The position numbers and the translations under genes were made by a program. A stretch of 64,000 nucleotides of DNA from Promethearchaeota archaeon (lineage in GTDB: Archaea; Asgardarchaeota; Lokiarchaeia; Sigyniarchaeales; SOKP01), in the NCBI GenBank assembly GCA_019058445.1, contig JAHPZA010000009.1:658355-722354 (forward strand), in the 5' to 3' direction. The notes under the pieces were generated by a model, which was not told where the DNA came from, made no database searches, and saw nothing but the letters and a program-made list of their open reading frames with translations. Below, piece after piece: positions 62,679 to 62,859 of the stretch; positions within the stretch are counted from its first letter, which is position 1, and each line of letters starts with the position of its first letter.

Positions 62679-62859
62679 GGAGGGATTACCGAGCATGGTC
62701 AATTTTTAATTGACATAGTGTAATTAAAGGCCATAAGTCTCTTGAAAAAACGGGTCAAGACCGATTATAGGTGCTGGACTTAAGATCCAGTGGCAAAGGC
62801 CTTCGTGGGTTCGAAAAGTTCCGGGATCTCCTCGATTCTTGGAATTCCCACTCCCTCCA
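62679..62859 (+). tRNA. tRNA-Leu (anticodon UAA), apparently interrupted by two non-canonical introns (D-loop ~62703-62768, T-loop ~62816-62845)
   Basis: Hand fold of the parts:
- Acceptor GGAGGGA / TCCCTCC (7 bp) plus discriminator A.
- D arm ACC-GAGCATGGTCAA[66 nt]A-GGT.
- Anticodon arm CTGGA-CTTAAGA-TCCAG.
- Long variable arm T-GGC-AAAG-GCC-TTC.
- T arm GTGGG-TTCGAA[30 nt]T-CCCAC.

The spliced length is 85 nt. The D loop matches the archaeal tRNA-Leu consensus GAGCCUGGUCAAAGG. The flanks are T-rich. Confidence 0.7.

Follow-up and report, generated by a model that had tools for sequence, protein, structure and literature searches.

A tRNA-Leu(UAA) gene of a Lokiarchaeia-like Asgard archaeon, very probably split by bulge-helix-bulge introns in its D loop and T loop

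Introduction

The tRNA genes of Crenarchaeota, and those of the Thermoproteales in particular, are described as carrying introns framed by bulge-helix-bulge (BHB) motifs, or by the relaxed HBh'/hBH variants, at positions 20/21, 22/23, 59/60 and others, with up to three introns in a single gene (PMC4090602). The same source includes 59/60 among its listed archaeal tRNA intron sites, and its account of similar crenarchaeal introns recurring at several sites suggests intron mobility (PMC4090602). Nested introns are also on record for archaeal tRNAs; in these, as cited by Soma et al. (2013, PMC3728597), the other introns must be removed before the last BHB can form.

Asgard archaea have been surveyed in two studies that bear directly on the present locus. 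Kaneta et al. (2018, PMC5829648) surveyed the tRNA genes of Loki-, Thor-, Odin- and Heimdallarchaeota and, in the account given there, incomplete Asgard tRNA sets imply the existence of unrecognised disrupted genes. The same account has Asgard archaea encoding an (αβ)2 splicing endonuclease (EndA) in which the L1 loop confers broad specificity and a tolerance of relaxed BHB motifs (PMC5829648). Atabeyarchaeia and Freyarchaeia are reported to have introns in 92-95% of their tRNA genes, and several introns in over half of them (Valentin-Alvarado et al. 2024, PMC11291895). A reading of the present DNA made from its letters alone (the sequence-only reading) had taken multi-intron tRNAs with introns at non-canonical positions to belong mainly to Thermoproteales and a few other archaea; that view is outdated, since such genes are abundant in Asgard archaea (PMC11291895; PMC5829648) and 59/60 is a listed site (PMC4090602).

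Here we describe one such gene, found in a stretch of 64,000 nucleotides of DNA that was analysed as a whole and is hereafter called the window. We detail its exons, the two inserts that separate them and the orthologous loci that fix the boundaries, before comparing the locus with the systems outlined above.

Gene identity and exon structure

The locus at 62679-62859 of the forward strand is a tRNA-Leu(UAA) gene. It is very probably, to judge from the comparisons below, a functional gene of a Promethearchaeia/Lokiarchaeia-like Asgard archaeon that is split by protein-spliced BHB introns at position 21/22 of the D loop (66 nt, probably 32 + 34 nt stacked) and position 59/60 of the T loop (30 nt). 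The parts of the mature tRNA, the stems and arms being read directly from the sequence, are the following:

62679-62702 (+): exon 1, positions 1-21; acceptor 5' strand GGAGGGA, U8-U9, D-stem 5' strand ACC and D loop to GGTCAA; conserved in orthologues, with compensatory acceptor changes
62769-62815 (+): exon 2, positions 22-59; A22, D-stem 3' strand GGT, G26, anticodon arm, variable arm, T-stem 5' strand and T loop to A59
62846-62859 (+): exon 3, positions 60-73; U60, T-stem 3' strand CCCAC, acceptor 3' strand TCCCTCC and A73
62679-62685 with 62852-62858 (+): acceptor stem, GGAGGGA paired with TCCCTCC
62774-62790 (+): anticodon arm CTGGA-CTTAAGA-TCCAG
62781-62783 (+): anticodon TAA
within exon 2 (+): class-II variable arm GGC-AAAG-GCC
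62805-62809 with 62847-62851 (+): T stem, GTGGG paired with CCCAC
62859 (+): discriminator A73

When the sequence was re-read, the acceptor stem, anticodon arm, variable arm and T stem named in the sequence-only reading were each found exactly where it had put them, and CTTAAGA is intact within 62774-62790, so that the anticodon loop is indeed without an intron. The same reading had held that a cloverleaf requires the removal of about 66 and about 30 nt. This proved exact: excision of 62703-62768 (66 nt) and 62816-62845 (30 nt) leaves an 85-nt product that forms a canonical class-II tRNA cloverleaf and is called as tRNA-Leu(taa) by ARAGORN at default settings, whereas the unspliced region is not called. 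Only the placement of the D-loop insert needed adjustment; it follows GAGCATGGTCAA, and a single A22 then precedes GGTG, which makes the site 21/22. The CCA end is absent from the gene, the sequence downstream of A73 reading CATTATTTTT.

Host and genomic neighbourhood

The window has a G+C content of 31%, against 45% in the tRNA region. The gene at 62919-63248, lying 60 nt downstream of the tRNA, encodes a PF0610-type Zn-ribbon regulator, and the homologues of this protein, together with their contigs, are labelled Promethearchaeia, Promethearchaeota and Hermodarchaeota. These names and the 31% G+C point to an AT-rich Loki-type Asgard archaeon as the host. Elsewhere in the window, at 52248-56101, two divergent MttB-family methyltransferase genes (508 and 506 aa) flank an ORF of 214 aa that was assigned, by eye only, as a corrinoid-binding protein; the arrangement resembles a methyl-transfer module, for methylated amines or something related, carried by an Asgard genome.

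Orthologous loci and constraint on the exons

Seventy further loci with the same exon 2 were collected (numbered here with the prefix L), and 55 loci, the window included, could be parsed fully. Two are syntenic genome loci (L002 and L003), in which the same tRNA gene lies upstream of the Zn-ribbon regulator; a metagenome scan with an exact 28-mer of exon 2 gave 64 more, and close protein homologues three more. The 28-nt core of exon 2 is identical in all 70 further loci, although it served as the search pattern for 64 of these, and the use of an exact pattern means that the metagenome sample covers one clade only. The split architecture recurs in 66 further loci and, judged by this recurrence, is far beyond chance.

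The 55 fully parsed loci yield 21 distinct spliced sequences, every one of them 85 nt long and recognised as tRNA-Leu(taa) by ARAGORN run with its defaults. In seven stem pairs both partners have changed, with a covariation score of 0.255 against at most 0.074 in slid registers, and compensatory changes are seen in the acceptor and T stems. The parser demanded paired acceptor and T stems, so the 100% stem pairing is partly built in, but the compensatory changes are not. The exons of the window equal those of L066 apart from an unpaired base of the D loop (A17 in place of C), and the mature D loop of the window is comparable to that of L047 (5079-5162, reverse strand). The latter comes from a G+C-rich organism and is an intron-less tRNA-Leu(UAA) with the same 28-nt anticodon/variable-arm core; it is the only strong Rfam tRNA match among the loci (61.3 bits) and is useful as an intron-free comparator.

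Around this mature sequence the inserts vary. The window's mature tRNA is also that of three other loci (L048, L050 and L072), which have a different intron set. The syntenic L002 has an extra 30-nt insert after G15, a D-loop insert and an intact T loop, and L003 has a 36-nt insert after G15, a D-loop insert and a 30-nt T-loop insert unrelated in sequence; the 15/16 inserts of these two loci always end in CGGGAA. In L029 a 21-nt insert splits the acceptor stem at 4/5, and inserts of 28-30 nt follow the variable-arm GGCC in L017, L032, L048, L050, L051 and L072, with a central helix AAGG/CCTT. These further inserts at 15/16, at 4/5 and after the variable arm are likewise of BHB type, and some genes would have four or more introns. 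Comparison with orthologous tRNA-Leu genes, which the sequence-only reading had proposed as a check, thus finds unchanged exons together with a precise presence or absence of the T-loop and further inserts. One locus stands apart from this pattern: upstream of the gene at 423-734 in L076, the acceptor GCAGGGA faces TCCCTCC with a C:C mismatch at 2:71, joining halves of two lineages seen elsewhere; chimeric assembly of the metagenome or recombination may account for L076.

The T-loop intron

Following PMC4090602, we took the BHB geometry to be a 4-bp helix between two 3-nt bulges, of which the canonical 5' bulge comprises two exon nucleotides and one intron nucleotide. The T-loop features are as follows, with a slash at the splice site:

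62816-62845 (+): T-loop intron, 30 nt, position 59/60; boundaries from the intron-less L066, L078 and L002
62810-62813 with 62840-62843 (+): BHB central helix, TTCG paired with TGGA (U-A, U.G, C-G, G.U)
62814-62816 and 62844-62846 (+): bulges AA/A and AT/T; the T stem is the outer helix and the inner helix is weak

Because L066 is intron-less and has identical exons in the T-loop region (GTGGGTTCGAATCCCAC), the boundaries 62816-62845 are unique. The insert is present in 31 and absent from 29 of the 60 loci that were parsed there, and the division runs through close relatives: L077 has an identical T-loop intron, and L078, L066, L002 and L036 have complete, intron-less T arms.

The 27 distinct T-loop introns, largely unrelated in sequence, were laid out by splice-site position alone. 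In this layout pairing reaches 90.4% in the central helix and 79.5% in the inner helix, as against 36-53% in slid registers, and the covariation score of the BHB is 0.565, as against no more than 0.21. A change of exon G57 to A57 is matched in the orthologues by a change of intron CGAA to TGAA. With the D-loop pairing given below, these figures answer the call of the sequence-only reading for BHB-like motifs at both junctions: the geometry is present, and its pairing lies far above that of the register-shifted controls.

The window's own copy is a weak example of the motif. Its central helix contains two G.U pairs, its inner helix is 2 bp followed by an internal loop, and its BHB conformer lies 6.5 kcal/mol above the minimum-energy hairpin, which places it 26th of the 27 introns. 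The hairpin of roughly 10 bp that had been noticed in the insert does exist and is the minimum-energy fold; it competes with the BHB, however, and is not part of it. Neither minimum-energy nor RNAalifold folding returned the BHB conformers of the window introns. We read such optimal folds as competing structures and not as evidence against splicing, since most orthologous T-loop introns lie within 0-2.7 kcal/mol of the BHB fold.

The D-loop insert: one intron or two

Position 21/22 is occupied far more constantly. An insert of 16 to 82 nt lies between GGTCAA and AGGTG in all loci except L047, that is, in 66 of the 67 loci of the main set and in L076-L078 besides, and in all 69 AT-rich loci sampled. 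The features of the window's copy, including two proposed subunits, B1 and B2, are these:

62703-62768 (+): D-loop insert, 66 nt, position 21/22; insert at the same site in orthologues
62697-62700 with 62763-62766 (+): central helix of the terminal BHB, GGTC paired with GATT; bulges AA/T (62701-62703) and AT/A (62767-62769)
62703-62734 (+): proposed unit B1, 32 nt
62697-62700 with 62729-62732 (+): central helix of the B1 BHB, GGTC paired with GGCC; bulges AA/T and AT/A (62733-62735); inner A/U hairpin
62735-62768 (+): proposed unit B2, 34 nt; homologous to stand-alone 25-42-nt D-loop introns of other lineages
62737-62745 with 62755-62761 (+): inner helix of B2, GTCT(C)TTGA paired with TCAAGAC; H2 is GATT

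The mature D loop is taken to match that of the intron-less L047 and of the other 20 spliced forms, which makes the D-loop boundaries unique. The outer limits drawn in the sequence-only reading consequently stand, but its treatment of the insert as one intron of 66 nt does not fare as well, two stacked introns being the likelier arrangement. Among the 24 distinct forms, pairing amounts to 92.7% in the terminal central helix and to 77% in the D-loop BHB overall, against 25-48% in slid registers; the GGTC/GATT helix of the window contains two G.U pairs. The short forms (25-42 nt) have an adjacent inner helix GGTC(TT)/(AA)GACC, and in the L016, L035 and L070 types this helix (h') directly adjoins H2. 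Forms of 51-53 nt retain a contiguous inner helix, while the long forms of at least 60 nt, the window's among them, are mostly without one (L051 excepted).

The internal sequence of the window's insert suggests how it is composed. Its 3' 34 nt align with the stand-alone short introns of the L016, L035 and L070 types, and its 5' 32 nt end in GGCC-AT, which offers the exon GGTC another pairing partner and adds a second 3' bulge. When the insert is split into 32 and 34 nt both units satisfy the BHB criteria, as do 9 of 500 shuffles. The GGCCAT is invariant in six of seven aligned window-type relatives, the seventh, L066, having GGCCAC. Stacking with unrelated first units is seen in L019, L054, L039, L049 and L051, and a strict ungapped two-unit test is passed only by the window, L078, L019, L039 and L049. 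On these grounds we favour, with some reserve, the reading that the 66-nt insert is a stack of two BHB introns, of 32 and 34 nt, with a single 5' splice site in common.

It is also possible, if rather doubtful, that a single 66-nt intron is removed in one step and that its conserved internal sequence is purely structural. The terminal GGTC/GATT helix and both 3-nt bulges do exist in the unspliced RNA, and a broad-specificity EndA, as PMC5829648 presents it, tolerates relaxed motifs. Moreover, RNAalifold applied to seven window-type sequences gives a long internal hairpin across both halves, and L002, L066, L077, L020 and L003 fail the strict two-unit test, a failure that we ascribe to a bulge in the inner helix of the first unit. 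The one-step BHB, however, has no inner helix adjoining H2 (xx|:xx). With the D stem enforced it reaches -10.3 kcal/mol, against -14.5 for the B1 BHB and -15.6 for the unconstrained optimum, and is thus about 4-5 kcal/mol worse than either. Removal in one step is further at odds with the homology of the 3' 34 nt to introns that stand alone elsewhere, with a GGCC-AT exactly where a second H2 plus bulge would be expected, and with the stacked units of the five other loci.

Minimum-energy and RNAalifold folds of the D-loop insert favour GGTC/GACC pairing and not the BHB geometry, and GACC (62759-62762) was considered as the 3' half of the central helix. It pairs perfectly with GGTC but leaves four extra D-loop nucleotides. 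This reading was discarded on the evidence of the short-intron lineages with a retained GATT/GAAT, in which the exon is paired with GATT/GAAT and the partner of GACC is a GGTC of the intron itself.

Extending the two-unit reading to the family, we put forward the tentative proposal, for which the case is nearly but not quite balanced, that the occupation of 21/22 by an intron is ancient and fixed in Loki/Hermod-type Asgard archaea. Fresh BHB units would accumulate there in tandem on the same 5' splice junction and be removed sequentially; the window would have a pair of 32 + 34 nt, and the five loci named above two or three units each. Such a pile-up, if true, would suggest that introns are gained by insertion where a splice junction already exists, perhaps through endonuclease-ligase reactions that are aberrant or run in reverse, and the gene family would then be a natural series for studying the gain and loss of archaeal tRNA introns.

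Detection by tRNA finders and other readings of the locus

The unspliced region gave no tRNA with ARAGORN, whether or not anticodon-loop introns were allowed, and no Rfam match of any kind either at the gathering threshold or at E values up to 10. Invisible to both tools, the gene has probably been overlooked in the annotation of this genome and of related Asgard genomes, whose tRNA sets would appear incomplete as a result. The sole ARAGORN/Rfam tRNA in the whole window is a tRNA-Gly(CCC) at 7455-7525 of the reverse strand, which is without an intron; not every tRNA gene of this genome is therefore disrupted. Among the orthologues, L078 has a marginal Rfam tRNA match at 420-498 of the forward strand (29.6 bits, at threshold) that begins inside the D-loop intron. 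We judged this to be a chance alignment in which the intron segment GGGTCAAGACC is apparently mistaken for the 5' portion of a tRNA, and automated tools could mis-annotate a truncated gene there.

Unguided searches were of little use in setting boundaries. In a brute-force scan of 41,472 deletion pairs with a relaxed ARAGORN threshold, thousands were called tRNA-Leu(UAA); the scan was too permissive, and the intron boundaries were set from the orthologues instead. A naive BHB scanner, run on the window, placed the T-loop solution near the top amid many A/T-rich false positives and left B1 unlisted, the 31% G+C of the sequence making it undiscriminating. G+C islands were also considered as hidden tRNAs; one is the known tRNA-Gly, and the most tRNA-like of the others (24421-24466) sits inside an ORF.

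The silence of the standard finders over 62679-62859, and the readiness of ARAGORN at a relaxed threshold to accept many arbitrary deletion pairs as some tRNA, might be taken as signs of a tRNA pseudogene in decay, or of a cloverleaf that arises by chance from convenient deletions. We consider this most improbable. A pseudogene should have unconstrained exons, broken stems and no conserved orthologues; here the exons are conserved in 70 further Loki-/Hermod-type loci while the inserts diverge or vanish, the acceptor and T stems show compensatory changes, and ARAGORN with its defaults accepts each of the 21 spliced forms. The boundaries, moreover, are dictated by intron-less orthologues and are not fitted. 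Inserts that vary or are absent around the same mature sequence behave as introns under exon constraint, and a pseudogene is in effect excluded. The class-II spliced product, the presence and absence of inserts in orthologues, the covariation of the stems and the conserved BHB geometry together support the interpretation, advanced in the sequence-only reading, of a split tRNA that is spliced.

Still more remote is the notion that the inserts are self-splicing group I introns, small mobile-element insertions or hosts of guide RNAs (C/D box sRNAs), for although tRNA-Leu(UAA) is a classic host of group I introns in bacteria and plastids, and the D-loop insert is unusually conserved in blocks such as GGGTCAAGAC, the anticodon loop that such an intron would occupy is uninterrupted, inserts of 30 and 66 nt are far under ribozyme size (a core of more than about 200 nt) and have zero Rfam matches, Intron_gpI included, the conserved blocks are explained by pairing with the exon GGTC or with the intron's own 5' end, the splice-site geometry is that of a BHB, and direct reading of 62703-62768 and 62816-62845 finds neither a C box (RUGAUGA) nor a D box (CUGA), in agreement with the earlier remark that the 66-nt insert lacks C/D-box motifs and unlike an intron-encoded C/D box sRNA of the archaeal tRNA-Trp type.

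Predicted processing of the pre-tRNA

A candidate promoter lies upstream of the gene:

62567-62582 (+): promoter-like A/T motif AAAATTTAAATTAAAA, resembling an archaeal BRE plus TATA box; found once in the 64-kb window

Of 51 orthologous loci, 47 keep the core of this motif upstream of the tRNA, at a distance of 72-154 nt (mode 107) and with divergent sequence around it. Behind the motif comes another conserved block, TTGATTATTGTTTCCCTTA. The motif may serve as the promoter, in which case the pre-tRNA would begin with a 5' leader of about 80 nt.

We infer a pathway of the following kind. Transcription would possibly start from this conserved BRE/TATA-like motif some 110 nt upstream. The 4-bp helix between two 3-nt bulges would arise at both junctions by pairing of the intron's 3' end with nucleotides at the end of the exon, namely G18-G19-U20-C20a for the D loop and U54-U55-C56-G57 for the T loop, and a broad-specificity (αβ)2 splicing endonuclease would cut after the second nucleotide of each bulge. 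In the D loop B1 would be removed first and B2 second, as the inner helix of B2 would adjoin the splice site only once B1 is gone. An RtcB-type ligase would then join the exons, and CCA would be added post-transcriptionally.

In the folded tRNA, the elbow between the D loop and the T loop is formed by G18-Ψ55 and G19-C56. Both predicted central helices sequester elbow nucleotides (G18, G19, U54, U55 and C56), so that, from the sequence and general tRNA knowledge, the L-shape should form only after splicing.

Comparison with known systems

The nearest counterparts of this gene are the multi-intron tRNAs already reported from Asgard archaea. As PMC11291895 and PMC5829648 describe them, they are alike in having introns away from 37/38, several in a gene, in being missed by default finders and in their presumed dependence on an (αβ)2 EndA with the L1 loop; both sources give genome-wide counts, whereas the case described here is one tRNA-Leu(UAA) family. 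The main text of these two papers contains no description of the present tRNA-Leu(UAA) family, with its 21/22 intron throughout the AT-rich loci sampled, its polymorphic 59/60 intron and its stacking at one site. The multi-intron tRNAs of Thermoproteales and other Crenarchaeota, reported by Sugahara (2007/2008) and Marck & Grosjean (2003) and reviewed in PMC4090602, differ in having crenarchaeal hosts, the present host being a low-G+C Asgard archaeon. Position 21/22 does not appear in the example list of PMC4090602, which includes 20/21 and 22/23 and ends in 'etc.', although the numbering of class-II D loops with 20a and 20b is ambiguous.

Nested archaeal introns (PMC3728597), to the extent described there, show the same dependence on order as the proposed removal of B1 and then B2. 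They lie one inside another, however, whereas the units proposed here would share one 5' splice site in tandem at 21/22. The group I intron of cyanobacteria and plastids interrupts the same isoacceptor, but it is a ribozyme of more than 200 nt in the anticodon loop, and the window's gene has an intact anticodon loop and inserts of 30 and 66 nt.

Multi-intron tRNA genes with non-canonical sites, the (αβ)2 endonuclease and nested introns are thus already published for Asgard or other archaea, and the tRNA-Leu(UAA) gene reveals no new mechanism. What it adds is a D-loop intron in every one of the AT-rich loci sampled from its clade, a dense series of intron gains and losses spread over five sites (4/5, 15/16, 21/22, after the variable arm and 59/60) and, probably, the stacking of introns at one of them. 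With one mature sequence, five insertion sites and presence or absence among close relatives, the orthologue series is a compact data set on the turnover of tRNA introns in the lineage closest to eukaryotes.
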